64,000 nt of DNA from an uncultured Kiritimatiellota bacterium (GCA_934635225.1 CAKTYZ010000003.1:3312-67311), one strand, 5' to 3'. Shown: positions 34,633-60,658, counted from the stretch's first letter. Notes: generated by a model from the sequence alone, not told the origin. Numbers and translations are program-made.

Positions 34633-34633
34633 A

Positions 34634-34644
34634 CCCCCCCCCCC
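34634..34644. repeat. Homopolymeric C11 tract (G11 on the coding strand) ending 1 nt upstream of the beta-helix gene ATG, in the RBS position
   Basis: The minus strand reads aatataGGGGGGGGGGGtATGaacctt. Confidence 0.9.
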
Positions 34645-34751
34645 TATATTTAGCAAGAACAGCCTTGCGACAAACCGTTTTAATCATTTTTCTCATGTTC
34701 TTCTCTCCTTTTGCTTTCCTTTGTTTCTGCAAGCCGTTGTTGACGACACCG

Positions 34752-35909
34752 TCATTTGCACGTTATGGTCTTCTTGCGCTTATAGTCATAGCAAAGACAG
34801 TTCTTTTGTCGCAAGTACCGATCTGAATTGTTTCCGACCCGGACGATCTTTATCAGCTTGGAGTTCGTGTCAAACGTAACGAAGTTGAAGCTGTCCTGAC
34901 TTTTCGAGCCTCTGATTCGAACGGAGTCATTCCATTGCGAATTGAGACTGGCGTTCTCAAAGGCGATGCAATACTGGGCCGGATGCCCCTTGATGACGCC
35001 TTGATAGTCATAATGCGAATCTCCGTGCATCCAGCAGATGAAATCTCCTCCAGACGAAATAAAGGCATCCACCTCTTGAACGAACTTCATCATGCTGTGA
35101 CCGCCATTGTAAGGCTTTAAGTCAATGCTGTTGAAGGTGTTGTTCTCCGAATCCTGAATCACTTCAAACGGAAAATGCTTTGCGGCGACAACGGAGAGGC
35201 CTTTCTCCTTCGCGTCCGAAAGCGCCTGTGCAAACCAATGAAGCTGCTCGTCGCCCGTGTCTTTCGGAACGAACATGCAGTCCAGAACGATGAGCCTCAC
35301 CTTGGCCTCCGCATAGTCCTTGTAATACCAGCAAAAGCCCTTTTCCTCGGCATCAACGGGCTGGACGACGCCCCAGCTTCCTATATGGGGCTGAAAGTAC
35401 CTAACGTAAGACTCCTTCCCGGAATGATACGACCAGTCCGCCTCGCTCAGGCTGCTATTGAGGGTGTCGTGATTCCCGATGGTCTTCAGAATCTTTTCCG
35501 TGCCTTCAATGCCGTCCCAGAAGTCCATGGGGTCTGCAAACGAAGATGGAACCATATCGCCAAGGCAGAGCATGTCGTCGATGTAGCGCCCGTACTCACG
35601 CGAGAAGTCGACGTATCTCTTCAGGTTTTCCTTGCAGCCATGAATGTCCGTAAAGACAGACAGGGTGCAAAGCCGATGGGACAGGACCAGGTTGCTTGAA
35701 TAGGGCCTTGTCGACTGCAGGATGAGGTTCCCCACGGTCTGCCTGTCATTTAAGTGGAAGACGGAAGATTTCCCGTCGGCAAGATCGCCCGACAGGCCCG
35801 CCAGAGACGACGGCTTTCCGTCCGAAGCGCAGAGCGGCGCGGCGGCGAACGACGCCGTGCCGACGATAAACGACTTTCTCGTGACCTCGCTCATCTTTTC
35901 TATCGCCAT
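34752..35909 (-). CDS. Calcineurin-like metallophosphoesterase, probably secreted
   Basis: GDMV, GNHD and WMHGDSHYDY motifs. The N-terminus ...TRKSFIVGTASFAAAPLCAS resembles a Tat/Sec signal. GC is lower (~50%) than in the flanking genes. Confidence 0.7.
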   Translation of the reverse strand: MAIEKMSEVTRKSFIVGTASFAAAPLCASDGKPSSLAGLSGDLADGKSSVFHLNDRQTVGNLILQSTRPYSSNLVLSHRLCTLSVFTDIHGCKENLKRYVDFSREYGRYIDDMLCLGDMVPSSFADPMDFWDGIEGTEKILKTIGNHDTLNSSLSEADWSYHSGKESYVRYFQPHIGSWGVVQPVDAEEKGFCWYYKDYAEAKVRLIVLDCMFVPKDTGDEQLHWFAQALSDAKEKGLSVVAAKHFPFEVIQDSENNTFNSIDLKPYNGGHSMMKFVQEVDAFISSGGDFICWMHGDSHYDYQGVIKGHPAQYCIAFENASLNSQWNDSVRIRGSKSQDSFNFVTFDTNSKLIKIVRVGNNSDRYLRQKNCLCYDYKRKKTITCK

Positions 35910-35984
35910 GTTTCAGTTTCCTATATGCATTATACCATACATTCGATTTTTCCGTCAATCACGCCTCCGCACTGGGGCAGGGTC

Positions 35985-37712
35985 CTAAGAATTCTCAATC
36001 TTCAGCACGAACGGCAACGTCGCGTTCGCGAGGCGCGGCGGGAGGCGAACGACCATCTTCGTCCCGTCGCGGCGGGCAGACAAGGCCTCCGTCTCGCCGA
36101 GGGCTGTGACGCACGCGCCCGACGGGATTTCGCAGTCGAGCGCGATTTCCGCCGCCGGCTCCTTCACGATGGCGTAGATCGCCTTCCCGTCCTTCGCCCG
36201 CGTGTAATCGACGGCCGACGTCGAGAACGGCGCGACGATGCGCGTCGCGTAGATCGCCTCGCCGTTCTTCTCCAGCCAGCGTCCGATCGAGAGAAGCCGC
36301 GCCTCCTGCACCTCCGGAATCGCGCCTTGCGCGTCAAGATTGACGAGCAGGAGCAGGTTTCCGCCACGCGCGACGATGGACGTGAAATGGCAGATGAACT
36401 CCCCGTCCGTCATCACCATCGACGGATCAAGCTCCTCCATCCAGTGGTTGCCGTAGGCCTTCGAGATGCCGGAGCACGATTCCCACGGATGCCACGTCTT
36501 CGGGTCGATGTTCTCCGCCGTGTCGCCCCACTCGTCCGTGAAGAAGTCGCCGCGCACCGTCCGGCAGCCGATGAGCCGGATGCCCTTGCGCGCGAAGGCC
36601 GCCTCCTCGGACGGGTCGAGCCGCCCGTAGCGGTCGTTGCAGCAGACTTCCTTGCGTCCTTCCGCCTTGTTGTAGAAGTAGGCGGTTATGTCGTAGGATC
36701 CGTTCTCCGTCGCCCGCGTCGCCCAGTCCGCGTCGTACCAGAGGATGTCAGGGTCATACTTGTCGATGAACGCCGTCATCTGCGGCACGATGTACTCGCG
36801 GACGAAGTCCCGGACGGCGATTTTCCCGGACGACTTGCCCTCCATCTCCGGCGTGTAGTCTGCGACCTTGCCGCCCCAGACCTTCATCCGGATTGAGCCG
36901 TCGTCCTGAAGGATCGGATACTCCCATTCGTCCGCCTGCGAGTTGTAGACGCCGAACTTCAGCCCCTCGGCCCGCGCCGCGTCCGCCATCTCCCGCGCGA
37001 AGTCGCGCTTCGCTGGGCCGTCCGCCGAATTGCGGAACGTGAACGGATCGTCCCAGAGGCAGAAGCCCGAATGGTGCTTGAGGAACGGCACGACGTATTT
37101 CGCGCCGCACCGGCGGAAGACCTTCATCATCTTCGCCGCGTCGAACCGCTCGCCGCGAAAGAGGCCGATGAAATGGTCGGGCTTGAAGTCCGCGCCCCAG
37201 TTCTTGCGGTGATACGCCGCCGCGCTGTCGGCCGCCGCGTATTCGGGGCGGCACTTGTACTCGTACCAGTCCGGATAGAGCCGCGCCCCCTTCGCATACG
37301 GCGAGTAGGCGGCGACCGACCAAGGTCCCCAATCGACGAACATGCCGAGCTTCGCGTCGATGAACCATTCGGGGCAGGCGTGACGATCCATACCGGCGCC
37401 GGTCGCGGCGTATTTCCCGGCGCGATTGACGGCGTTCACCTTCTCCACCTGCGCCCGGGCGCGCGCGATCGTCTCCGCCGAATGGTCGCGGGCGATCTCC
37501 GGCAGCGTCTTCGGGAACGGCGGCGCCGGCTTCCAGCCCGGCGGACGGCGATACTTCGCAGGCGCAGTCGGCACGCCCCCCGCGACCGCCGACCGCCCCT
37601 TGAACTCGTCCGTGAACGCGGCGTTGTCCGCCGGGGCCAGCGTCGTGTCGGCCAGCGTCACCTGCGCCAGCACGCCAACGGACAAGGCGGCAAGAGGAAC
37701 GTCAATCATCAT
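35985..37712 (-). CDS. GH29 alpha-L-fucosidase (secreted)
   Basis: Signal peptide, then the GH29 motif AKLGMFVDWGPWSVAAY and ...YVVPFLKHHSGFCLWDD. The ATG overlaps the regulator's TGA as ATGA. Confidence 0.85.
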   Translation of the reverse strand: MMIDVPLAALSVGVLAQVTLADTTLAPADNAAFTDEFKGRSAVAGGVPTAPAKYRRPPGWKPAPPFPKTLPEIARDHSAETIARARAQVEKVNAVNRAGKYAATGAGMDRHACPEWFIDAKLGMFVDWGPWSVAAYSPYAKGARLYPDWYEYKCRPEYAAADSAAAYHRKNWGADFKPDHFIGLFRGERFDAAKMMKVFRRCGAKYVVPFLKHHSGFCLWDDPFTFRNSADGPAKRDFAREMADAARAEGLKFGVYNSQADEWEYPILQDDGSIRMKVWGGKVADYTPEMEGKSSGKIAVRDFVREYIVPQMTAFIDKYDPDILWYDADWATRATENGSYDITAYFYNKAEGRKEVCCNDRYGRLDPSEEAAFARKGIRLIGCRTVRGDFFTDEWGDTAENIDPKTWHPWESCSGISKAYGNHWMEELDPSMVMTDGEFICHFTSIVARGGNLLLLVNLDAQGAIPEVQEARLLSIGRWLEKNGEAIYATRIVAPFSTSAVDYTRAKDGKAIYAIVKEPAAEIALDCEIPSGACVTALGETEALSARRDGTKMVVRLPPRLANATLPFVLKIENS

Positions 37713-38869
37713 TTCTTCCCTTTCTTCTTCTGCTGTTTCGTTTTCGACTTCTTCAGCGACTGCGTCCGGGCCGCCGCGCCCTCGGGACGACGCGTCGAGG
37801 CGCGCACGACAAGGGGCGCCGGCAACAGGATCTCCGTCGGCGGCAGCGTCGGGTTCACGAGCCGCCGGAGGAGTCGGTCGAACGCGGTCTCGGCGATGAG
37901 GTCACACGGCTGGTGGATCGTCGTGAGCTGCGGCGTCATGACGCACGCCGTGCTCGTGTCGTCGAATCCCGCTAGAAGGATGTCGTCCGGCACGCGCAAC
38001 CCCAGCCCATCCAGCGTGTTCTTGAGGAGCGCCGCCGTGAGGTCCGTGCCGCAGACGATCGCGTCCGGCCTGTGCCGACGCAGGTACCGCCGAATCGCCG
38101 CCGCGTCTTCGGGCTGCGCATCGATCACGCCGCCCTCGGACGCGGCGCCCCTCATCCGCAGCGCGTTCATCACGCCGTTGACGCGCCGGTACATGTTCGC
38201 CGAGCGGTCGGCGTGCATCAGGAAGCGAATGTCCCGCGCGCCCGCCGCGAGCAGGTGTTCGGCGAGACGGCCACCGGCCGACTCGTTGTCGATGCCCACA
38301 AGGTCATAGTCGCTGCGGCGCGGCGGCTTCACGAAGTCGCAGTCGATCAGCACGACCGGCACCTGCGCGTCCGCGAAGACGGACAGGACCTCGCGATTGC
38401 ACGCCTCCGAGTCCGTCACGAACTCCAGCGGCTGATAGATGACGCCGGAAACGCCCTCGCGGACGATCGTCTCGGCGAACCGCTTCGCCTGCTCAACGCG
38501 GGCCGTCGCGCCCTTCGCGGAAACGTCGCCGAAGAGCAGCGTCCGCTCCGCCTTCTGCGCACAGCGCGAGACGCCGCTCACGAGGGCGGAGAAGAAGTCC
38601 GAGTAGGCGACGCCCGGCACGATAAGCCCGACGGGACCGGCGCCGCGCTGCGCACTCTTCGACAGGAACGTGCCCTTGCCGCGCCGCCGCACGAGGAAGC
38701 CCTTTGCGCTCAAGTCCTGCAGGGCCTGGGCGACGACCGAGCGCTTGACGCCAAAGCGCCGCGCGAGTCCACGTTCGCTCGGGAAGGGATTCGCCGCCGC
38801 GAGGTACTTTCCGCTAAGGATTTCCTTTCGCAGGGTCGTGATGATCAGGCTTGTCTCATTGGCTTTCAT
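37709..38869 (-). CDS. Transcriptional regulator with a GntR-type wHTH N-terminus fused to a LacI-like periplasmic-binding-fold sensor domain
   Basis: ...PFPSERGLARRFGVKRSVVAQALQDLSAKGFLVRRRGKGTFL is a GntR HTH. A LacI/PBP-like domain follows (GLIVPGVAYSDFF...), and the protein ends in a Lys-rich tail. It sits at the head of the glycan locus. Confidence 0.75.
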   Translation of the reverse strand: MKANETSLIITTLRKEILSGKYLAAANPFPSERGLARRFGVKRSVVAQALQDLSAKGFLVRRRGKGTFLSKSAQRGAGPVGLIVPGVAYSDFFSALVSGVSRCAQKAERTLLFGDVSAKGATARVEQAKRFAETIVREGVSGVIYQPLEFVTDSEACNREVLSVFADAQVPVVLIDCDFVKPPRRSDYDLVGIDNESAGGRLAEHLLAAGARDIRFLMHADRSANMYRRVNGVMNALRMRGAASEGGVIDAQPEDAAAIRRYLRRHRPDAIVCGTDLTAALLKNTLDGLGLRVPDDILLAGFDDTSTACVMTPQLTTIHQPCDLIAETAFDRLLRRLVNPTLPPTEILLPAPLVVRASTRRPEGAAARTQSLKKSKTKQQKKKGKK

Positions 38870-39068
38870 GGATTCCTTCTCCAGACTACAGTTCGTAGTA
38901 TAGCCGAAATCCTCTCCAGAATCCAGACTGGCCAGCCACTTTGTCAACGCGGCGAGAGGACAAGGAATTGTCTATTTGTGACGTATGCGGCGACGATCCC
39001 GCCAGAGTACGCGATGTGATAGTCCCGGTTGCCGCCGGGATTTGCGCTTGGCATTCTCGCCCCATGGC

Positions 39069-39290
39069 TCAGGGACCTACATTGCCGTCATCCGCCGCAG
39101 CTTGCTGCAGCTCCTTCCGGCAGAACCTCTTGGAAACGCCCATCGCGCAACGCCCCCGCGCCGGAACGGGCATGCAGCTGCGGTTCTCCACACGCTTCAG
39201 TCCCGACATGATCAGGACGGCGTATGCCCCGGTGCAGGTAAAGGCGCGGTCTTCCGCAATACGAACAAGGATATCGTTGTCATCGGCCAT
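39069..39290 (-). pseudogene. Truncated ASCH-domain gene copy (N-terminal 57 aa homologous to the 42711-43202 gene, then divergent)
   Basis: The stretch AFTCTGAYAVLIMSGLKRVENRSCMPVPARGRCAMGVSKRFCR is identical to the full ASCH gene. The GxKxxExR ASCH motif is present but the rest of the domain is missing. Confidence 0.6.
39118..39246. repeat. 129-bp direct repeat, copy A (128/129 identical to 43033-43161)
   Basis: Read directly from the sequence; there is a single mismatch (ctg/cta). Confidence 0.9.
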
Positions 39291-39293
39291 AAG

Positions 39294-39806
39294 CTACCTC
39301 CTAAAACCTATCAATTCACCTCCTTTGAGATAAATGGGGGCGCCCGGCTTGAAGTCGCCGCCTTTCTCGCGCTTGCGCTCCGCGATGAGCTGCGGCACGT
39401 CCAAGTCGCCAAGCGACACTTCCTCCTCCAGCACGTAGCAGTAGTAGTCGCACTGGGCGGAAGCGTAGCCCATCTTGATCATCTTGTCCTTCTCGCAGCG
39501 CATAATTGTTCGGCGCGTCTTCCCCAACTGTTGCGCGTAATGTTCGGCTCGCATGCCTGGATGTGCCTTTATGAGCGAAAGCAATCTGTTCCGATCATCA
39601 TTTACTGTGACATTTACTGTGCTAGTTACTGTGACACCACTTGATTTTGCCGTGACAGCCTTTGCCCTTGCTGTCTCATCCGATGTCATAGTATTTCTAT
39701 GGACATTCATCCTTACGGCGATGCCCGCATCTTCGACCACGACGGGGTTTATGCCATGCCATAATCGCGCAAGATGCCATTCACGCGGCGCAACCCACTG
39801 CCCCAC
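39294..39806 (-). CDS. Hypothetical protein with a C-terminal winged-HTH-like region; true start uncertain
   Basis: The C-terminus ...LLSLIKAHPGMRAEHYAQQLGKTRRTIMRCEKDKMIK is HTH-like. The N-terminal region contains VTVTSTVNVTV, encoded by TTACTGTGAC direct repeats. The gene is low GC. Confidence 0.35.
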   Translation of the reverse strand: MGQWVAPREWHLARLWHGINPVVVEDAGIAVRMNVHRNTMTSDETARAKAVTAKSSGVTVTSTVNVTVNDDRNRLLSLIKAHPGMRAEHYAQQLGKTRRTIMRCEKDKMIKMGYASAQCDYYCYVLEEEVSLGDLDVPQLIAERKREKGGDFKPGAPIYLKGGELIGFRR

Positions 39807-39839
39807 TCCTCATGTCTGTAGGTGGCACAAACGAAGTCT

Positions 39840-40460
39840 TTAGTCACTGTCCTTTGATTCATTTAGAAAACGTTTTCTATGATATGCCGCGATATCATTG
39901 ACAAGCGCATTTACTGTTCCCAATTCGGCATAATGCCATACCGACCATGAGTTCATAAATAATCCTGCCGGTGCTAACGGCAACCAACTAAGACATCTGA
40001 GTTCTTCTGCTTTTGCAGTAGAGTAGATGGGCTTCCTTTTTAATGACAAGACCGCAGACCCATCAAATGTACAGACTTCTCCTGTAGGCACAAGAAAGAA
40101 GGTATAGCCTGCCAATAAACCGACAGCCATTGAATCTTCTACCGTCATACCTGCTTGCCTAAACAAGAATGACACATGATATGAATCGTCGATAGTTCCT
40201 TTGCCATACAAAACCTCAGAGAAAAGACCTGTGGCTTTCAATCCCTCTTCAATCTTGTCCCTTAACTCTTGCATTTCAGGCGCGGCAATTATATCATTCC
40301 TGTCCAAATCCAGAATAACATCGTAGGAGATGGGAACTTTATCTTCGACCGAAATTCGCGTTTCAATGACGGGAGTATTATCCGTATACCCTGCATCCCA
40401 CATTATGCAACCCGAAAACAACACGGAGATTCCAATGCCGATGATAAGTTTACTTTTCAT
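39840..40460 (-). CDS. Lipoprotein (hypothetical)
   Basis: MKSKLIIGIGISVLFSGC lipobox; low GC. Confidence 0.5.
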   Translation of the reverse strand: MKSKLIIGIGISVLFSGCIMWDAGYTDNTPVIETRISVEDKVPISYDVILDLDRNDIIAAPEMQELRDKIEEGLKATGLFSEVLYGKGTIDDSYHVSFLFRQAGMTVEDSMAVGLLAGYTFFLVPTGEVCTFDGSAVLSLKRKPIYSTAKAEELRCLSWLPLAPAGLFMNSWSVWHYAELGTVNALVNDIAAYHRKRFLNESKDSD

Positions 40461-41256
40461 CTGTCACCTCCACTTCCTTGATGGCGCCCTCGTTCGCAAT
40501 AAACGGTGCGATATCTTTTCGCGTCATAATTGGCACTCCATTTATCGACTTTACCACTTGACCTCGCTTGACGCCGTGTTTTTCAGCCTGCGTTCCGTGC
40601 ACGACAGCAAGGACATGGACAACAGTTGGCGAATCGGCTTTCTCCGTTGGAAGTCGTTTTGGGATATGCCACACAATGCCGTATCGACCATTATAATCAA
40701 TCTTTTTGAAAAACATTGCATCATGTTGGTAAATACTCACTTCGCGCTGAACAGGGACGGCATTCAACGTTGTGGTAGTTGACGTTCCGGAATATGTCCC
40801 AGTCCCGTACACATAACCGCCTCTTCCGTATGCTGATGCATTTACAGAACCGCTATGATAAGTTTTAGCGTATGAAGGCAGAAACATCACTGATGTGTAT
40901 TGCTTGTTCTCCTTGAATCGAACATCCAAAAGGACGAGTGCGGCATTGTGTTTTTCAGCCGTATCGATTGCACAGGAAAAAGGACAATACGGACTGTTAA
41001 AGGAACTGTGACCGATAGCCACATATCCATCTTCCATCAGACGGAGTACATCTTCTTCGGTCGTGACCGTCTTAAGAATCACAGGTGCATCACCATGAAC
41101 AGACTGTAGTGCCCTGTCTCTTTCGGAATCAGTATAGAACTTCTCATAATTGTTGGCTATGCACCCAGAAAGAACAATCAAAAGGCATATCGATGCGGTT
41201 GTCCGACTGATGCATTCCCATAAAGACATATTAAAGAGCATTCTTTTAGTATTCAT
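40450..41256 (-). CDS. Lipoprotein with a C-terminal PDZ-like domain
   Basis: The lipobox LIVLSGC is followed at the C-terminus by ...VVHGTQAEKHGVKRGQVVKSINGVPIMTRKDIAPFI, which is PDZ-like. The gene overlaps the previous lipoprotein gene by 11 nt. Confidence 0.5.
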   Translation of the reverse strand: MNTKRMLFNMSLWECISRTTASICLLIVLSGCIANNYEKFYTDSERDRALQSVHGDAPVILKTVTTEEDVLRLMEDGYVAIGHSSFNSPYCPFSCAIDTAEKHNAALVLLDVRFKENKQYTSVMFLPSYAKTYHSGSVNASAYGRGGYVYGTGTYSGTSTTTTLNAVPVQREVSIYQHDAMFFKKIDYNGRYGIVWHIPKRLPTEKADSPTVVHVLAVVHGTQAEKHGVKRGQVVKSINGVPIMTRKDIAPFIANEGAIKEVEVTDEK

Positions 41257-41335
41257 TCGTGGTCTCTTTTTAGTTGCTCAAATCGCTCCACCGCCTCTTC
41301 GCTCACCTTGTACGGCGGGATGTACTTTTCGGAAC

Positions 41336-41680
41336 TCATTGCCCGACCCCTCTTGTTTCTGTCTTCCAATAATGTTTTGCTGAATGCACAACCGCGACCT
41401 CGATTCCGTCTATTATAGCAAGACGTTCTGCTAGACGCTCTGCGAAATACACGGATCGGTGCTGTCCCCCGGTGCAGCCGAAGGCGACTTGAAGATGATC
41501 GCGGCCATCTCGCTTGTATTGTTCTATCGATTGGCGAACAAGCGTCTCGGTCGCCTCAAGGAACGGCTCGACAGTCTTTGGGAAGCGGGCGAAGAAGTCA
41601 CAGACGGGATTGTCGCGCCCCGTGTAGCCGCGTAGTGTCTCGTCCCAGAATGGGTTAGGCATGGCCCGGCAATCGAACAC
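41336..41680 (-). pseudogene. rapZ: C-terminal fragment of rapZ (RNase adaptor RapZ/YhbJ). The N-terminal P-loop half is missing and only 125 nt remain before the next gene.
   Basis: ...CRAMPNPFWDETLRGYTGRDNPV...LQVAFGCTGGQHRSVYFAERLAERL matches RapZ residues ~155-284 (LPNPHW...GCTGGKHRSV). Confidence 0.6.
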
Positions 41681-41805
41681 GAAGCCCCCTCCATTACCGG
41701 TGGGGGTCTTCCGGCAAGCCGCGCTTAAAGGAGAATGATATGACGGTGATGGTCATATGGAATTCACTTCGGCAAGCTGCATATTTACGACGTCGGAAAT
41801 CTTGT

Positions 41806-42711
41806 TCACCTATGGCTCTCCGATTCAGGCGGCTTATCATCGTCAGTCTCGTAGTAGTATGAATAATCAATGCCTTTCATGAACATCTCCCGATCGGCGA
41901 TTTTACTGGTTAGGGCGGGTCGGAGGAGTTGCTTGAGTGGCTTGCTGTCCGAGACGCTTGTTCGCATTGCGGAAAGGTATGTCTTCTTGTCCACCTTGCT
42001 CCAGTCGATGCATCGCTTGAGAGAGCGTTTCAGCATAAGGTCGAGCCAGATGCGCGTGGCGCGTCCATTCCCCTCCATGAACGGGTGCGCTACGTTCATT
42101 TCAACATACTTGTCGATTATCTCTTCGAACGCGTTTTCGGGCATGGCCTCAATTGTCGCGAGCGTTGTCGGGAAGTGCATACAGTTGGCGAATGTGAAGC
42201 CGCCCTTGGAAATGTTCTTCGTCCTGACCTGTCCTGCGAAGTCGTATAGACCGCCGAAGATGTATCCATGAATCTGCCGCAGGCACTTCACGCTTCCCGG
42301 TTCAAGGCTGGACAAGAGATCGCTCTCGAAAAGCGCATACGCCTTATGGCGCGATTTACCGTCAATGGTGTTGTCGGAGTAGAGGAACCAGTCGAGAAAT
42401 GCCGTTGCCCGTTCATTTGGGATTTTCTTTGCAAGCGCGACAACGCCGTCTGCATCCACGACGTCGGAAAGATAGGACTTGCCGTCCGCCGCTTTCAGCT
42501 TCAGTTGGGTAGTGGCGCTAACCAGCTCGTCGTCCGTCCGTTTCAGCTTCGCCTTGAGGAATTTCCAGTAGTTTCGTGCTTTGGCATATTCAGGTTCATT
42601 GTTGATGGCGGCAATGACATCAAGAACAGAGAACCGCCACTTTGCGGCGGCATCATCCCAGATCGCCCGCACCTCGCGGTCATTGTAGAAACGGATGGAA
42701 GATTTATGCAT
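41806..42711 (-). CDS. Fic/Doc family protein with an N-terminal Bro-N/KilA-N-like domain
   Basis: Fic motif HPFMEGNGRATRIWLDLMLKR. The N-terminus IRFYNDREVRAIWDDAAAKWRFSVLDVIAAI is Bro-N-like. There is an AGGAG RBS, and the ATG shares one nt with the ASCH gene's TGA (TGATG). Confidence 0.8.
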   Translation of the reverse strand: MHKSSIRFYNDREVRAIWDDAAAKWRFSVLDVIAAINNEPEYAKARNYWKFLKAKLKRTDDELVSATTQLKLKAADGKSYLSDVVDADGVVALAKKIPNERATAFLDWFLYSDNTIDGKSRHKAYALFESDLLSSLEPGSVKCLRQIHGYIFGGLYDFAGQVRTKNISKGGFTFANCMHFPTTLATIEAMPENAFEEIIDKYVEMNVAHPFMEGNGRATRIWLDLMLKRSLKRCIDWSKVDKKTYLSAMRTSVSDSKPLKQLLRPALTSKIADREMFMKGIDYSYYYETDDDKPPESESHR

Positions 42712-43202
42712 CAGTCAGCTCCTAATTGCGCATTTACTGCACCAGAAACATCTTCCGGCAGCCGCCACATTCCGACATTGCCGCGACAGGGAATGGGAGC
42801 AGGCAACTTGCGAATGTTCGAGAGTAGCCACCAGTAGCGGTAGCCTTCATTCCAAAACTGCGCCTGAACCCGCCAAGGTTCTTCTTCGGGTTCTGCATCT
42901 ATCGCCTGGTAGTCCATCACCGCGACGATGTGGCCCGGCCAACAGCTCGCCTCTTCCCATGTCGGGACGATGGCATCCACCCTGTCGCCGTTTAATCGCC
43001 GCAACCACGCTTTGATGCCGTCATACTCGGCGCGGCAGAACCTCTTGGAAACGCCCATCGCGCAACGCCCCCGCGCCGGAACGGGCATGCAGCTACGGTT
43101 CTCCACACGCTTCAGTCCCGACATGATCAGGACGGCGTATGCCCCGGTGCAGGTAAAGGCGTTGACGATTGGCATAAGTTCAATTAAGAAGATACCCTGC
43201 AA
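42711..43202 (-). CDS. ASCH-domain protein (full length, 163 aa), translationally coupled to the downstream Fic gene
   Basis: The GLKRVENR segment fits the ASCH GxKxxExR motif, and the protein has the expected ~110-aa beta-barrel length plus an extension. Confidence 0.6.
   Translation of the reverse strand: MQGIFLIELMPIVNAFTCTGAYAVLIMSGLKRVENRSCMPVPARGRCAMGVSKRFCRAEYDGIKAWLRRLNGDRVDAIVPTWEEASCWPGHIVAVMDYQAIDAEPEEEPWRVQAQFWNEGYRYWWLLSNIRKLPAPIPCRGNVGMWRLPEDVSGAVNAQLGAD
43033..43161. repeat. 129-bp direct repeat, copy B (inside the 5' part of the ASCH gene)
   Basis: Read directly from the sequence; matches 39118-39246. Confidence 0.9.
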
Positions 43203-43235
43203 TGATTGGAAGAGCCGATAGGCACTCGCGGATGA

Positions 43236-43664
43236 TCAAATGAGAGACAATTCTACCATGGACACAAAGCCTGTGTTTCCAGCACAATCAGATGTGCCAA
43301 GGATTAAATGATCGATAAGCGGTACGCCCATAAGGTCTGCCGCCTCGCGCAGTTTCGTTGTCGCCGCGATGTCCGCCTTGCTGGGCGTGAGGTCGCCCGA
43401 GGGATGGTTGTGCGCGACGATGATTTCCTCCGCGCCGGCTTTCAGCGCCTCGCGGAAGATTGCGCCCGCGTCAATTGTTGCCGTGCCGTCCTTGTGCCCG
43501 ACGGAAACAAGAATCGGCTTGGCAAGTGCCTTGCCGTTGCCGTCCAGCGGCAGGACGAACACACGCTCCTCCTTCTGCTCCTTCGGCAACGCGGCGCGGA
43601 ACATCGCGTCAGCGTCAGCGGGGGTTTCGACGCAGCACTTTTCTAACAAACCTTTATGCCTCAT
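43236..43664 (-). CDS. RadC-like JAB/MPN domain protein
   Basis: ...EIIVAHNHPSGDLTPSKADIAATTKLREAADLMGVPLIDHLILG is the JAMM motif. The start was set at the internal Met (MRHKGLL) because the long ORF overlaps the upstream gene. Confidence 0.75.
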   Translation of the reverse strand: MRHKGLLEKCCVETPADADAMFRAALPKEQKEERVFVLPLDGNGKALAKPILVSVGHKDGTATIDAGAIFREALKAGAEEIIVAHNHPSGDLTPSKADIAATTKLREAADLMGVPLIDHLILGTSDCAGNTGFVSMVELSLI

Positions 43665-43977
43665 AGTGAAACACCTGGTAATTCTCGACATTGCGTTTGT
43701 TGATTGTGAAGCAATCATGTTTTTGTAAAAACTTGGCGATGTCTGCTTCGCATGGAAAAGCATGATGTTCAAGATAGAACGACCTGAAGTCTTGCTTCAG
43801 CAACTTAGCAAGAGTCATTTCAAACTCACCTTTCCAGGACAAACCCATTTTTGCCAAATCAACAACAAACTCGATTTCTCGACTAGTTCCTGAGGCTTCA
43901 AGACATGCAAATACACGAATAGTGTCCTTGCTACCGCGTACTTTTTGCACATCCCCTATGACTGCATCGGTTATCAT
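43654..43977 (-). CDS. Hypothetical 107-aa protein, overlapping and co-oriented with the RadC-like gene
   Basis: The ORF overlaps the radC-like start by 11 nt; low GC; no recognisable motif. Confidence 0.4.
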   Translation of the reverse strand: MITDAVIGDVQKVRGSKDTIRVFACLEASGTSREIEFVVDLAKMGLSWKGEFEMTLAKLLKQDFRSFYLEHHAFPCEADIAKFLQKHDCFTINKRNVENYQVFHYEA

Positions 43978-43986
43978 TGTTTTTCT

Positions 43987-45027
43987 CTAGGGTCTTGAAA
44001 AATCCATGACATAGTTCTCGTCGTCTAGTTTATAGAACTTTACTTCCGTTCGGCCATATCTTTTCAAGTCGGAAACAGAAATATATGCGCCATTCGGCAA
44101 CCCCAACCTTTGGCGAAAATAGCGGCCAATCTCAGAATTGTCCTGTGGTGTTTCTATACCTTTACCATTAGCCTGAGCACGAACACAGGTAAAGATTCTG
44201 TCATCGTCAGTAAGGACAGTGAAGCGATGCTTGACATCTGGAAAAAAACCTGAGCGTTGAAGCGACGCCGGAAGTCCAATGTACGACTGGTTAGGGTCGC
44301 GTTTGCTTACCGACCCATTTCCATTCGTCGATGTCCTCGGCTTCCCATCAGGGCGGACTCCCCAATTTAAGCGCGACCCGTTGCCAGCGTCTCCCTTGGT
44401 TGTGAGCAACGACAAAACAACCATTTCGTGATTGTAGAACGGCGAAGTTTTATCCGTTTCTATCTTAACAGCTTCAGAGGATTTGGCTATTAGCGATGTA
44501 GCATGAGATTTTGTTGAGAAATCCTTATCTCTATTTGCCTTGTCGCATAAGATGGTCTTTTTCTTTACCTCCTCAAAGAAATCAAATGCCGTTGAAGGAT
44601 CGCATTCAGCAAGCGTCTCTCTCCGACTTGGAAGATGGAAGCCTGATTCTGAGTAGTTGGCAGAACCGATGAATGCCTGTACGGGCTTGTCGCCTTTGCA
44701 CCAAACATACACCTTAGAATGCACTGACGACGGCTTTCTCACATACGAACAAGTGAAGTCGCCATTGTATGCGAACTCCTTATGTTGTTCAAGAGAGATA
44801 AAGCCAAGATGGTTTATTTTGCTAACACCATCAGAACCCGCCATGCCATATATCAAATCAACAGATAGACTCTTCTTCCGAGATGTGCTTTCTATCAAAT
44901 GCCGCGCCGCCATCGCATGAGTAGCGTAACCTGAAACAATCTTGATTGAATTGGGTGCATCGCTTCTGAAGAGCGGCTTGATAAGCGCATACTCAAAAAG
45001 TTCATCGTCAACTACAGTTCCAAACAT
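43987..45027 (-). CDS. PLD-family (HxK...GSxN) nuclease, a likely Type II restriction endonuclease of the NgoFVII/BfiI type
   Basis: The HSKVYVW...IGSANYSESGF motif is present. The gene lies 29 nt downstream of a C5-MTase gene and is very low GC. Confidence 0.6.
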   Translation of the reverse strand: MFGTVVDDELFEYALIKPLFRSDAPNSIKIVSGYATHAMAARHLIESTSRKKSLSVDLIYGMAGSDGVSKINHLGFISLEQHKEFAYNGDFTCSYVRKPSSVHSKVYVWCKGDKPVQAFIGSANYSESGFHLPSRRETLAECDPSTAFDFFEEVKKKTILCDKANRDKDFSTKSHATSLIAKSSEAVKIETDKTSPFYNHEMVVLSLLTTKGDAGNGSRLNWGVRPDGKPRTSTNGNGSVSKRDPNQSYIGLPASLQRSGFFPDVKHRFTVLTDDDRIFTCVRAQANGKGIETPQDNSEIGRYFRQRLGLPNGAYISVSDLKRYGRTEVKFYKLDDENYVMDFSRP

Positions 45028-45056
45028 AGGCCTCCTTCGCGGATTGTCATCTGCTT

Positions 45057-46793
45057 CTATTTTAAGACTCCTTCGTCAGAAATGTTACACTCAACATGTT
45101 CATAGGCAATGCCCGCAAGAGTACGAAGCAATGCCTCAAAGATGATTTGCGCACCTCTAGGAGGCACTGCCATACCTATTTGTTTCCGCACACTTTCTTT
45201 ACTGCCTGTAAAGAGATAGTCATCAGGGAATGTCTGCAACCGTGCTCGTTCGCGATTTGTTAGCGCACGCGGCTCTGCGTAATGGTAGATATGAGTACCG
45301 CCACCGCCTGATCCAGTAACTGTATAAGCAGGCTTATCTGGATCGAGGCGCTTATAAATTTGGCTGATTTTAGCGCCTTTTACATTAAGTTGAAGGTGAG
45401 GCGGCAGATTTGCCGTGAATGCGTTTTCTCCAGGCCGTATATACTGCAAGCGTTCTACGACAACGGAACTTTGCGCCGTTCGCGTATTGTTAGGAGCATT
45501 TGGAGGTATGGGAGGATTCTCCAATGCGGCTCTCGCAGAATTGTCCCTCGGCATGATTGAGACTGGGCTGGGCGGAAAGAACGCAAAAGGCAAGTCTTCC
45601 CTTATGCCGATTATGATTATCCTGTGGCGCGTTTGCGGCACGCCGTAATCCTCAAACTTGTAAAGATGAGGATAGATGCGATACCCCGCCTCCTTCATGC
45701 TCGAAAGAATCTTTTTGAGTGCCGCGCCTTCGTTTGCGCTGGCAAGACCACCTACATTCTCGGCAAAGAACCAAAGCGGATTGAACTTGCGAAGCACGGC
45801 AACGCCATATTGATATAATGGGCCGTAGTTTCCGTCAATACCTTTATGTTCGCCTACGACCGAAAAATCATTACACGGGAAACCAAAGGCGAAACCGTCT
45901 ATGCTCGTCAGACGCTTGTCATCCAAGTCTATCTTGCGCACATCATCGCATATAACAGAAGCAGGAGAATCTGGACAGATGTTCTCCGCATAAGTCTTGC
46001 AGGTCTGTTGGTCGTAGTCATTCGACCATGCATGAACAATCTTAAAGTTCTGATTCTCGATCGTCGCATTAAGCGCACCACACGCAAGGCCGCCTGGTCC
46101 GCAAAAGAACTCCCCCATACGATATGGTTGACCATTGGGCGTGCCGGGCATTAAGGCATGGTTGTATTCTGCACGACACTCGTTATCAACATAGTCTATT
46201 GGTTCCGTTCTTGGCACATGGTGTTGTTCTGGGTACATCATTGACAGAAAAGTAAACTGATACGCCGCCTCGCACACGCGCAGCTGTTCGGGGCGCAGTT
46301 TCGTGACGACTTCCGGCAGACGTTTCGCGAGGTCGGGGTCGGCGCGGTCAGGCGACTCGAGGTACGCCTTGAGCTGCTTGCGCACTTTGGGCGCGGTCGC
46401 GAAGTCCGCCGTGCGGACGATGACGCGCGCCGCGTCTTCCGGCGGCGTCAACTTGTGCTGATACTTGAGCTTCGTCTTGAAGAGCAGGTACTTCTCGCCG
46501 TGCGCCCTGCCCTTCGCAGGGTAGCCGTAGTCGCGCACCAGCTCTTCGCGGGTCTTGACGCCGACGAACTCCGCCTTGTACGTCCTCTGCTCCTTCGAGC
46601 CCTTGAAGAGCCACAGCTCCGCGATCGACGCGGCGTCGGCCTCGGCGATCTTGTCGTCGTCCGAAATGGGGTAGTTGTACCAGCCGCGCCACTTCGCCAG
46701 CTGGTCGCCCTTGTAGGTGCCGACGAGGACAACCCTGCCGCGCTGTCCGTCATCCGTCGTCCCTTGCGTTTTCTTCTGCTTTCTCGTTGCCAC
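45057..46793 (-). CDS. DNA (cytosine-5)-methyltransferase with a ~184-aa N-terminal extension of different base composition
   Basis: Motif I FFCGPGGLACG, motif IV GFPCNDFS and an ENV motif. The ORF begins with GTG. GC switches abruptly from ~65% to ~45% at ~46240, where an in-frame MMYPEQ could be the true MTase start. Confidence 0.8.
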   Translation of the reverse strand: MATRKQKKTQGTTDDGQRGRVVLVGTYKGDQLAKWRGWYNYPISDDDKIAEADAASIAELWLFKGSKEQRTYKAEFVGVKTREELVRDYGYPAKGRAHGEKYLLFKTKLKYQHKLTPPEDAARVIVRTADFATAPKVRKQLKAYLESPDRADPDLAKRLPEVVTKLRPEQLRVCEAAYQFTFLSMMYPEQHHVPRTEPIDYVDNECRAEYNHALMPGTPNGQPYRMGEFFCGPGGLACGALNATIENQNFKIVHAWSNDYDQQTCKTYAENICPDSPASVICDDVRKIDLDDKRLTSIDGFAFGFPCNDFSVVGEHKGIDGNYGPLYQYGVAVLRKFNPLWFFAENVGGLASANEGAALKKILSSMKEAGYRIYPHLYKFEDYGVPQTRHRIIIIGIREDLPFAFFPPSPVSIMPRDNSARAALENPPIPPNAPNNTRTAQSSVVVERLQYIRPGENAFTANLPPHLQLNVKGAKISQIYKRLDPDKPAYTVTGSGGGGTHIYHYAEPRALTNRERARLQTFPDDYLFTGSKESVRKQIGMAVPPRGAQIIFEALLRTLAGIAYEHVECNISDEGVLK

Positions 46794-46815
46794 TTTCTCC
46801 GTCTCCCTGAATCGC

Positions 46816-47415
46816 TCAACTTGCGCGGCCCTGCCGCTTCGACTTGCGCCTTCGCGCCCCGCCCTTCGTCCGCGTCCCGTCAGGCCGACGCGCGAACTCC
46901 GCGCATTCCGCGTCGGTCAGAAGCCCCTTCCCGTTGGCCACATGGGCGGCGTCGCGCAGGCGGGCGGGCCCAATCGCGCCATCGGCTCTCGCCGTCCGCA
47001 TCGCCTCGACGAGCCGCTGGCACTTTATGCCCTCGAAGCCCTCGTATTCGACGACTTCACATGGCCGGTTGCAAGCGAGCCGACAGTACTTGGGAAGCCT
47101 GCGCCTCACCCGCCTCGGCGTCCCCAAGTAGACGAACGGCGGACTCGCCGGCGTCAGGCCGAGCATCTGCACGACCGAAGCGCCGCGCAGATACGCGCCC
47201 TCCCCCGCAACGGCGACAGACGCGGCGTAGCGGTCGTTCCGGCCAACCACATGGTGCTTGACCTGGTAAACGCCGTGCCCGAGACGCATCAGGCGACCGC
47301 TGCGCTCCATGGCGACAAGACATTGGCGTGAAACGCCAAGACCCTTCGCTTTCGCGGAGGTGATGATGCCGTAGTTGCCTTCGGCAACGCCCCAAAGTAC
47401 GTCGTATGCGCTCAT
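46816..47415 (-). CDS. AbiEi-like antitoxin N-terminal domain protein (winged-HTH transcription-regulator fold)
   Basis: ...GIITSAKAKGLGVSRQCLVAMERSGRLMRLGHGVYQV fits the AbiEi_4 N-terminal pattern. The start was set at MSAYD, which has a TATAAT box ~13 nt upstream. There is no adjacent AbiEii-type nucleotidyltransferase. Confidence 0.5.
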   Translation of the reverse strand: MSAYDVLWGVAEGNYGIITSAKAKGLGVSRQCLVAMERSGRLMRLGHGVYQVKHHVVGRNDRYAASVAVAGEGAYLRGASVVQMLGLTPASPPFVYLGTPRRVRRRLPKYCRLACNRPCEVVEYEGFEGIKCQRLVEAMRTARADGAIGPARLRDAAHVANGKGLLTDAECAEFARRPDGTRTKGGARRRKSKRQGRAS

Positions 47416-47426
47416 GACAGTGCCGT

Positions 47427-47432
47427 GCATTA
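47427..47432 (-). promoter_or_regulatory. Perfect TATAAT -10 box immediately upstream of the AbiEi-like start
   Basis: The minus strand reads catggTATAATgcacggcactgtcATGagc. Coordinates are +/-2. Confidence 0.35.
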
Positions 47433-47683
47433 TACCATGAGCAGGGCCTGAAAGGCAATGGCGGACGGGCATGGGATTCCGCCGCCGCGCCCGAACGGAC
47501 GCGGAGGCGGAATCGATCAGAGCGTGATCCCGACGCCGGAACCCAAGATGGAGCAGCCTCCCGACAGCGACACGACGCTGCCGCCGAGAACCGCGAGCAG
47601 GACGGGCCTGAGCGCGTCCCACAGCATCTTCGCGAGCCGATCCCAATTTATCATCTTCCGTTTCATTTTCCTCGCACCTTCCC

Positions 47684-48491: not shown

Positions 48492-48553
48492 TTGTCCATG
48501 CGCATCCGAGGGGGCGTTCCATGCGCATGGACAACCCCTGCCGATGCGCATGG
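48492..48553. promoter_or_regulatory. Three CCATGCGCATGG palindromic boxes, including a perfect 14-bp inverted repeat TTGTCCATGCGCAT-N15-ATGCGCATGGACAA, lying 80-140 nt upstream of the HU-like gene
   Basis: Read directly from the sequence; CATGCGCATG is itself palindromic. Confidence 0.6.
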
Positions 48554-60646: not shown

Positions 60647-60658
60647 TCACCCAATTCG

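Follow-up and report, generated by a model that had tools for sequence, protein, structure and literature searches.

We analysed a 64,000-nt window of an uncultured Kiritimatiellota bacterium (GCA_934635225.1 CAKTYZ010000003.1:3312-67311), in which a run of low-GC genes, including a restriction-modification (R-M) pair, lies between about 39250 and 46250. In this segment, resident frame genes alternate with exchangeable cargo, a mosaic assembled in several separate recombination events. The first frame gene would be N-dom, the N-terminal domain of a methyltransferase, and the second a RadC-like JAB gene about 2 kb downstream. We consider it likely that the segment is a chromosomal, multi-slot defence array, scaffolded by such genes and built by serial recombination, and not one mobile element. 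This reading draws on the observed anatomy of the segment, its recurrence in other loci, the separate histories of frame and cassette, selection on the frame genes, and gene remnants.

In 500-nt windows, the GC content falls from 0.63-0.71 to 0.42-0.58 between ~39250 and ~46250; for the segment 39247-46253 as a whole it is 0.494, versus 0.658 for the 64-kb background. Tetranucleotide usage departs from the background by a distance of 0.52-0.70 at 40-46 kb, versus 0.16-0.31 elsewhere. Every gene in the segment is on the minus strand. By GC at third codon positions (GC3), the coding regions fall into three classes. The host-like class (0.88-0.89) contains a fucosidase, a regulator, a 243-aa gene, and codons 1-180 of the methyltransferase open reading frame (ORF). 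The intermediate class (0.57-0.77) contains the RadC, ASCH-like, Fic and PapZ_C genes and two gene remnants, and the low class (0.41-0.47) contains the catalytic part of the methyltransferase, the restriction endonuclease (REase), orf107, and two lipoprotein genes. A first-pass annotation, made from the sequence alone, had described a low-GC segment from ~39247 to ~46240 with a foreign, mosaic composition. The computed profiles bear this out: they are not uniform, and composition and codon usage are atypical for the host, as expected of a horizontally acquired island. The annotation missed that the right compositional boundary (~46255) falls within a single ORF of 578 aa (45057-46793), in which GC3 steps from 0.883 over the first 180 codons to 0.466 over the rest. 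These first 180 codons (46254-46793, minus strand, ending in ...LRVCEAAYQ) are N-dom, a conserved part of a frame gene with host-like GC3.

For comparison we used the genomic contexts of homologues together with 80 further loci from a scan of JGI metagenomes, giving about 90 gut and rumen loci (L numbers below). The same order recurs among them: N-dom, usually fused to a methyltransferase; one variable ORF; and RadC. Of the 30 loci with at least 4.5 kb of downstream sequence, 28 have RadC on the same strand, where N-dom precedes it by 1.75-3.7 kb (median 2.2 kb), and these RadC copies are 63-89% identical to that of the window. The variable middle ORFs belong to the EcoRII, DUF4928 or NgoFVII families or are Sau3AI-like with two MutH domains; others have no family assignment, which is usual for type II nucleases. 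What had been taken for a typical cargo set of a mobile element, as far as the methyltransferase, the REase, the small ORF and RadC are concerned, is one recurrent module and not a set of unrelated cargo genes.

Between these conserved flanks the R-M center is unrelated from locus to locus. In 94 locus pairs, the N-dom sequences are at least 85% identical, yet the methyltransferases to which they are joined are less than 40% identical (100% versus 30% for L063 and L056). In 52 pairs, conversely, the methyltransferases are at least 80% identical, yet the N-dom sequences fall below 75% (98% versus 64% for L092 and L118). Over locus pairs, N-dom and methyltransferase identities correlate with r = 0.34. 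As judged from these identities, frame and cassette have independent histories. The REase families change along with the methyltransferase between loci.

The junctions are sharply placed. In most of 3346 pairs, the DNA homology between loci ends no more than 18 nt from the codon for Q179. On the other side, the conserved RadC block starts ~40 nt before the RadC start codon and ends just before its stop. In 81 of 81 loci, GC3 is higher in N-dom (mean 0.69) than in the 900 nt behind it (mean 0.47), and the mean GC3 of RadC across loci is 0.65. Both frame genes are under purifying selection, with a median dN/dS of 0.11 for N-dom and 0.13 for RadC. Several loci carry what we regard as a replacement scar, in which N-dom and a methyltransferase stub of 55 aa are followed by ORF6N and HNH_2 genes. 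Similarly, L051 retains the first 236 residues of the window's type of methyltransferase and the last 134 of its REase, with an HNH_2 gene between them.

N-dom has no match in Pfam (E<=10), NCBIfam, or the PDB sequences, and the PADLOC methyltransferase models all begin at about residue 220 of the 578-aa ORF. A word-indexed search returned 226 homologues with 53-85% identity. An exhaustive HMMER search among 1.84 billion representatives found only 234 proteins with the domain at E<=1e-3, nearly always at the N-terminus. The homologues differ in what follows N-dom: there are unrelated C5 methyltransferases and truncated methyltransferase stubs, a Dam-like enzyme and DUF3791, and in some proteins nothing follows. 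Among the 41 long N-dom proteins, PF00145 (C5 methyltransferase) is present in 29, PF01555 (N6_N4 methyltransferase) in seven and PF02086 (D12 methyltransferase) in two. By these matches, N-dom is a rare domain at the N-terminus of DNA methyltransferases of three classes. No relatives were found in IMG/VR, the INPHARED phages, or the PLSDB plasmids.

An AlphaFold2 model built from 85 sequences was used for N-dom; an earlier model from 25 sequences was poor (pLDDT 58.6). In the model, the domain forms a small beta-barrel in which strand 1 is followed by a helix, and a helical tail comes after the barrel. It is structurally nearest to ASCH, EVE and YTH domains and to the sensor domains of VcaM4I, McrB and PD-T4-3, a weak likeness that suggests a remotely PUA-like fold. 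The probable role of N-dom is to bind nucleic acid or a modified base, or to regulate the enzyme to which it is attached.

The genes for N-dom in L052, L058, L064, L067 and L108, and those of proteins P0086, P0097, P0116 and P0117, contain a GC-rich palindrome, GGTAGGGCGGTCGCCCCGCGACCGCC, inserted in frame within loops. It lies about 60-100 nt before the codons for VLVGTYKG and encodes runs such as GRARSPSAPQ or GRAVAPRPS. The palindrome looks like an element of the REP (repetitive extragenic palindromic) or MITE (miniature inverted-repeat transposable element) type that is tolerated in coding sequence.

In the window, N-dom is followed by a linker and the catalytic part of a C5 cytosine methyltransferase (45057-46253, minus strand; Pfam DNA_methylase over aa 225-556). 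The assignment is supported by PF00145 (4.7e-69), PADLOC MTase_II (1e-112) and TIGR00675, and the motifs FxGxG, PC, ENV and QxRxR are present in the translation. The DNA homology of the window to other frames ends at 46257-46270, and the catalytic part, with its GC3 of 0.466, is best read as cassette DNA. Separated from it by 29 nt is an REase gene of the NgoFVII family (43987-45027, minus strand), whose product has a PLD nuclease domain at the N-terminus and a B3-like domain for DNA binding at the C-terminus (RE_NgoFVII PF09565, 1.5e-35; RE_NgoFVII_C PF20731, 4.4e-31; PADLOC REase_II); its translation contains HxK and GSxN. The same pair is housed in the frames of L052 and L085 and is broken in L051. 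The methyltransferase and the PLD/B3 nuclease would form a type II R-M pair that restricts unmethylated DNA.

Next follows orf107 (43654-43977, minus strand; GC3 0.417), a small cassette gene without a family match. Its last 16 codons lie within the conserved RadC block, whose homology begins at 43705. A relative with 44% identity precedes RadC in L100. In other loci, the small ORFs before RadC match no Pfam family and show no conservation from cassette to cassette. The RadC-like JAB gene itself (43236-43664, minus strand, 142 aa) matches Pfam RadC PF04002 (1.3e-27) and NF000642; it has no counterpart of the HhH N-terminal part of chromosomal RadC, and the profile match starts at position 87 of 212. 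The metal-binding motif HxH...S..D is intact in the translation (AHNHPSGDLTPSKAD). The RadC clade has been predicted to act on nucleic acid (PMC5512222), and by analogy the RadC of the frame probably acts on DNA or other nucleic acid. We dropped the idea that RadC is a peptidase cleaving N-dom off the methyltransferase, as JAB proteins of the RadC clade are predicted to have no groove for a ubiquitin tail (PMC5512222).

In one locus, L050 (2808-3968), RadC forms a fusion with an N6_N4 methyltransferase and N-dom one with a Dam-like enzyme, and an NmeDI-like nuclease lies between them; the frame thus takes adenine-methylating systems as well. Directly after RadC, several loci (L077:4203-5918 and relatives, cluster c9) have a type IV nuclease of the GmrSD type, and other loci carry AAA_13 with LlaJI or an AAA ATPase with an S8 peptidase. 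Since its contents differ between loci, the position after RadC is a second variable defence slot.

The part of the segment beyond RadC was compared with L053 and L046, whose frames resemble that of the window (90-94% nucleotide identity for N-dom and 92-93% for RadC) and whose cargo differs. In both loci, RadC is followed by an AAA_13 gene, a small gene, a LlaJI-like REase gene, and an ASCH-like gene; the last is full in L053, and only its 3' end is present in L046, where an intact 139-aa PapZ_C gene follows. The window retains two remnants of the LlaJI-ASCH stretch. One is orf86 (39294-39554, minus strand), identified by its sequence identity to L046 and L053 as the C-terminal remnant of a LlaJI-type REase gene; over aa 687-755, the LlaJI-like protein of L046 (755 aa) matches it with 96% identity. 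This origin escaped the first-pass annotation. The other is a 73-aa remnant (39069-39290, minus strand) of the 5' part of a second ASCH-like gene, which retains the ancestral 5' end and one copy of a 129-bp direct repeat and is contiguous with the LlaJI 3' end, as in L053.

The two copies of this repeat (DR1, 39118-39246; DR2, 43033-43161) are 99% identical. The duplication, which had been described as marking the left edge of the island, is real, but it does not bracket the island, because the second copy lies inside, within the ASCH-like gene. Two parts of the window, 39504-39118 and 43161-42745 (97% identity each), map to one contiguous stretch of L053 with an overlap of exactly 129 bp, and L053 contains the repeat once, inside its contiguous LlaJI-ASCH stretch. 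The repeat is therefore the overlap of two partial LlaJI-ASCH copies and not an att site. The neighbors on the inner sides of the repeat are contiguous in L053, and those on the outer sides are not. A long target duplication created on insertion was rejected, the topology being inverted relative to L053. These comparisons with L046 and L053 reveal pieces with separate histories and agree with the serial recombination events that the first-pass annotation had offered as an alternative to a degraded integrative element.

A third allele of the LlaJI 3'-ASCH 5'-repeat stretch is joined in L009 (1-357) to a window-like ASCH-Fic-PapZ_C-lipoprotein unit, and has 12 mismatches to the window copy and seven to L053. 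This metagenome contig either preserves an ancestral LlaJI-ASCH-Fic arrangement or is a strain chimera, and we left it out of the argument. In the window, a tandem 12-nt motif, ATCATTTACTGT / GACATTTACTGT / GCTAGTTACTGT, is found at 39597-39632, in the spacer that separates the LlaJI remnant from the gene of the 206-aa lipoprotein.

The full-length ASCH-like gene of the window (42711-43175, minus strand, 154 aa) contains the DR2 copy. Compared with L053, its initial codons have been replaced, and over 43161-42745 it is 97% identical to that locus at the nucleotide level. The protein has no Pfam match at E<=10. It matches phrog_3193, and a phmmer search of the PDB returned weak matches to four ASC-1 ASCH sequences (E 1e-3 to 2e-3, aa 13-143). 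In the closest relatives, the gene belongs to the frame. The adjoining Bro-N/Fic gene (41806-42711, minus strand, 301 aa) is firmly assigned as class III, NmFic-like, with the motif HPFMEGNGR intact (Pfam 2.5e-12; NCBIfam NmFic 1e-76, 256 bits versus a cut-off of 230). It also matches the PADLOC model PDC-S04 (PDLC04841) over its full length, with a Bro-N-like N-terminus and the Fic domain (3.6e-160, aa 2-290 of 301); PDC-S04 is itself only a candidate defence family in PADLOC-DB. The protein may be an AMPylating defence effector. In L046 the Fic gene is precisely missing, so that window positions 42745 and 41799 are adjacent there, and a degenerate copy of the ASCH 3' end is found on both sides of the gene in the window. 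By this comparison, Fic is a precise single-gene insertion between ASCH and PapZ_C. Of the coupling of an ASCH gene to a Fic gene that had been proposed, the Fic part is secure, but the ASCH match is weak and the juxtaposition secondary, given that the ASCH 3' end abuts PapZ_C in L046.

The next gene (41336-41760, minus strand; Pfam PapZ_C 2.7e-29) encodes only the C-terminal domain of RapZ, covering profile positions 180-275 of 278, without the N-terminal P-loop domain. The intact relatives are likewise stand-alone genes, of 139 aa. The window gene is 89% identical in nucleotides and 82% in amino acids to the intact gene of L046. One additional C in a short C run at ~41700, upstream of the GTG at 41680, reduces the 139-aa form to an ORF of 114 aa starting at this GTG (41336-41680). 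The earlier description as a rapZ C-terminal fragment was correct as to the domain; owing to the frameshift relative to L046, the gene is to be read as a stand-alone PapZ_C gene disrupted at its 5' end. Two overlapping lipoprotein genes (39840-41256, minus strand) complete this part of the segment; they encode a PDZ-containing protein of 268 aa and one of 206 aa, with the lipoboxes VLSGC and FSGC. The PDZ_6 match of the former (7.7e-6) is just under the Pfam cut-off. These genes have the lowest GC in the island (GC3 0.41-0.43). Their small family appears confined to Kiritimatiellae; the only named member among its 78 homologues comes from a Kiritimatiellae metagenome-assembled genome (MAG).

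On the other side of N-dom, 22 nt upstream of the methyltransferase ORF, is an AbiEi_4-type helix-turn-helix gene (46816-47415, minus strand, 199 aa; Pfam AbiEi_4 1e-8) with host-like GC and a GC3 of 0.785. No partner of the AbiEii family was found in the family scans of the island, the next gene being the N-dom methyltransferase; this agrees with its earlier description as an orphan. A tblastn search over about 90 related loci gave no match, which argues that the gene is not part of the frame elsewhere. A promoter-like site, TTGCCT-18-TATAAT with an extended -10 (TGGTATAAT), is located at 47429-47458 on the minus strand, 13 nt before the AbiEi_4 ATG. The sequence TTTGGTATAAT also precedes N-dom genes in 14 of 56 distinct other loci; AbiEi_4 may therefore sit inserted behind the promoter of the array. 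The site at 47458-47429 is likely where transcription of the array would start. An imperfect palindrome with 32-nt arms (48496-48553) lies beyond AbiEi_4 on its right side, upstream of the 243-aa gene. A second low-GC patch (34500-36000; GC 0.48-0.55, tetranucleotide distance 0.40) within the glycan-utilisation locus spans a 385-aa gene without a Pfam family; the gene next to it has 709-aa and 730-aa alleles among otherwise near-identical strains.

Exact-protein look-ups on both flanks found identical proteins on more than 20 human-gut metagenome contigs (Hadza, Nepal, others), in the same arrangement in all. The contigs from the same species are 99.8-100% identical to the window over the island and its flanks. 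Three related species, represented by uncultured Kiritimatiellaeota MAGs, have in common with the window only the regulator and the fucosidase (35996-38942) and have different neighbors beyond. No presence/absence polymorphism was seen at the site among these contigs and species, and this comparison is uninformative there, because the former are identical and the latter share only the two genes. The content of homologous frames in other loci does vary.

As we picture the array, the frame genes would be long-term residents, nearer to the host in composition and kept under purifying selection, and ASCH-like and stand-alone PapZ_C genes would extend the frame in the closest relatives. The DNA between frame genes would be drawn from a pool of lower-GC cassettes and swapped by recombination, with junctions at the 3' ends of the frame genes. 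We infer that the exchange proceeds by homologous recombination in the frame genes, with donor DNA from relatives that carry another cassette. In the window, the first slot would hold the NgoFVII-type type II R-M pair and orf107, with the methyltransferase part joined in frame to the resident N-dom. The slot between RadC and ASCH would be empty here, where close relatives have AAA_13, a small gene, and LlaJI. Bro-N/Fic, the PDC-S04 candidate, would have been inserted after ASCH, followed by the frameshifted PapZ_C and then the two lipoprotein genes, and the LlaJI-ASCH remnant would be the mark of an earlier state of the array. Transcription would come from the site before AbiEi_4, which would replace the promoter usual for N-dom genes, and N-dom would serve whichever methyltransferase is attached to it.

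One competing explanation, that of the first-pass annotation, makes the whole low-GC block a single degraded integrative and conjugative element, integrative and mobilizable element, or prophage remnant that lost its integrase, with the 129-bp repeat as an att-like edge. Atypical GC over 7 kb, the defence-type cargo (family scans support Fic, RadC, the NgoFVII PLD nuclease, the C5 methyltransferase and AbiEi_4, as annotated), a long direct repeat, and the gene remnants with a frameshift would suit such an origin. In agreement with that annotation, no mobility gene is present: across about 10 kb to the left and right, none of the genes is recorded with an integrase or transposase Pfam family, and Pfam, PHROG and NCBIfam scans of the island ORFs found no recombinase. 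The tRNA and Rfam scans recovered only a tRNA-Val at 60658, unrelated to the island. No att repeats bracket the island, the sole long repeat being internal, an overlap of gene copies whose inner neighbors adjoin each other in L053. An ORF with a host-like 5' part spans the right boundary, N-dom has no viral, phage or plasmid relatives, and the block splits into pieces of separate history. We therefore abandoned the degraded element, which we regard as very improbable. An integron or CALIN cassette array was rejected as well, since genes overlap or abut at 42711, 40450-40460 and 43654-43664; the repeat search found no recurrent inverted repeat between genes, although no dedicated attC model was run.

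A narrower alternative treats the N-dom methyltransferase, the REase and RadC as a self-contained mobile R-M unit that hops between chromosomal sites and carries N-dom and RadC along, perhaps to help it establish itself or to process DNA; the remainder of the island would be separate cargo. Such a unit would be compact (3-4.5 kb) and occurs in many unrelated neighborhoods; RadC is typical of conjugative elements (PMC5512222), and mobile R-M forms without classical mobility genes are documented (PMC2853133). The homology between loci, however, begins at the conserved N-dom core and ends near the RadC 3' end without conserved ends or a shared terminal sequence or repeat; no conserved operator or terminal sequence was found upstream of N-dom or downstream of RadC, only the common extended -10 motif. 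The missing recombinase, the independent histories of frame and cassette, a frame that is GC-richer than its cassette in every locus, and the lack of viral, phage and plasmid relatives likewise speak against the unit, and we think it unlikely. One could also dispense with cassette exchange altogether and suppose that the N-dom-methyltransferase fusions are ancient, that the catalytic parts diverged faster, and that differing constraints produced the GC offset. This would fit a junction at the same residue everywhere, the first four to five linker residues, which are semi-conserved, and the universal GC3 offset. It does not fit partners from three mechanistically different methyltransferase classes plus DUF3791, identical N-dom sequences joined to methyltransferases with 30% identity along with the converse, truncated stubs and split cassettes, or REase families that switch together with the methyltransferase, and we give it hardly any credence.

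Several observations weigh against the scaffolded array built by serial recombination. The genes flanking the module differ widely between loci, so that the module itself could move. The related loci are metagenome contigs, so frames compared between them may be orthologous or paralogous. Among same-species contigs and the three related species, we found no genome with an empty or alternative slot at the exact chromosomal site of the window. The named relatives of the REase are Kiritimatiellia too, and for this reason a foreign donor from another phylum is not demonstrated; the cassette pool may itself be low in GC. The roles proposed for N-dom, RadC, ASCH, PapZ_C and orf107 are predictions only.

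A further proposal, which we hold only tentatively, builds on the scaffolded array and takes N-dom and RadC to be working parts of a distinct "framed" class of R-M systems and not mere recombination anchors. The PUA-like reader could sense the modification state or single-stranded DNA, or control expression, and the nuclease-like RadC protein would act on the same DNA. Because both parts would be generic, the methyltransferase-REase pair between them could be replaced like a plug-in. If such a class exists, gut and rumen Kiritimatiellota would own a dedicated means to change restriction specificity, and RadC would have its first defined functional context. More generally, if the frame is functional, N-dom would be a new kind of accessory domain for methyltransferases, and RadC, over whose role opinions have differed for decades (PMC5512222 cites "RadC, a misleading name?"), would gain a setting in which it can be tested. 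The frame would also show how an uncultured gut lineage varies its restriction specificity with no need of mobile-element machinery. As a pair, N-dom and RadC can serve as a simple marker for R-M cassettes, including REases without a family, in Kiritimatiellota metagenomes.

Defence islands and allelic R-M replacement are already well known. The pneumococcal DpnI/DpnII cassettes are an example of allelic R-M substitution. Such substitution at a conserved locus was described by Furuta, Abe and Kobayashi in 2010 (PMC2853133), and a gene fusion that created a new methyltransferase gene on insertion has also been reported (PMC2853133). The array shares with that process unrelated R-M sets at the same position, conserved flanks, atypical composition, and the lack of classical mobility genes. 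It differs in that the left flank is a protein domain in frame with any arriving methyltransferase (C5, N4/N6 or Dam-class), that the right flank is RadC, and that about 90 loci in many chromosomal contexts are involved instead of one locus in one species. Defence hotspots flanked by conserved genes are known from the E. coli pan-genome (PMC10121019) and from P2 and P4 (PMC9122126). As in these, co-oriented defence genes are clustered and the content between conserved anchors varies: the R-M pair and the PDC-S04 Fic in the window, and Mrr, GmrSD, LlaJI and HNH in relatives. The anchors here, in contrast, are small, array-specific genes (N-dom, RadC, ASCH-like, PapZ_C) and not housekeeping or phage genes, the junctions lie within the anchor 3' ends, and there is no integrase or prophage.

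The R protein, with its N-terminal PLD nuclease and C-terminal B3-like DNA binder beside a C5 methyltransferase, resembles those of CglI and NgoAVII, systems that require a DEAD-family helicase/ATPase (N/H) subunit (PMC4267653, PMC4267654). The similarity of the REase to R.NgoAVII is marginal (E 4e-4). In the window, orf107 and RadC follow the REase, and neither here nor in the three other loci with this cassette (L052, L085 and L051) is there a gene for a DEAD helicase (N/H) or another ATPase. The family matches place the R-M system of the window as an apparent two-gene relative of the NgoFVII Pfam family. Some C5 methyltransferases of R-M pairs, such as M.SsoII, M.EcoRII and M.MspI, have an extra N-terminal region as well; these autoregulatory extensions are short, of the helix-turn-helix type, and specific to one enzyme family. 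Autoregulation of this kind is a plausible model for the role of N-dom, although N-dom is, as modelled, a beta-barrel domain of 180 aa that spans unrelated methyltransferases, and no conserved operator was found upstream of it.

Domains of the PUA superfamily (EVE, ASCH, SRA, YTH) adjoin or are fused to restriction nucleases and HsdS (PMC7641849, PMC6765204, PMC7897488). The modelled beta-barrel of N-dom with its helix after strand 1 would be in keeping with such sensor systems, as would the ASCH-like gene in the same array. Bell et al. (2020), writing on PUA-like domains, do not mention RadC (PMC7641849), and in the literature searched we found no publication on an in-frame domain for any methyltransferase that is paired with a downstream RadC. 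What is new here, compared with these systems, is N-dom itself, its in-frame fusion to three methyltransferase classes at a fixed junction, the near-constant pairing with RadC, and the compositional step within an ORF.

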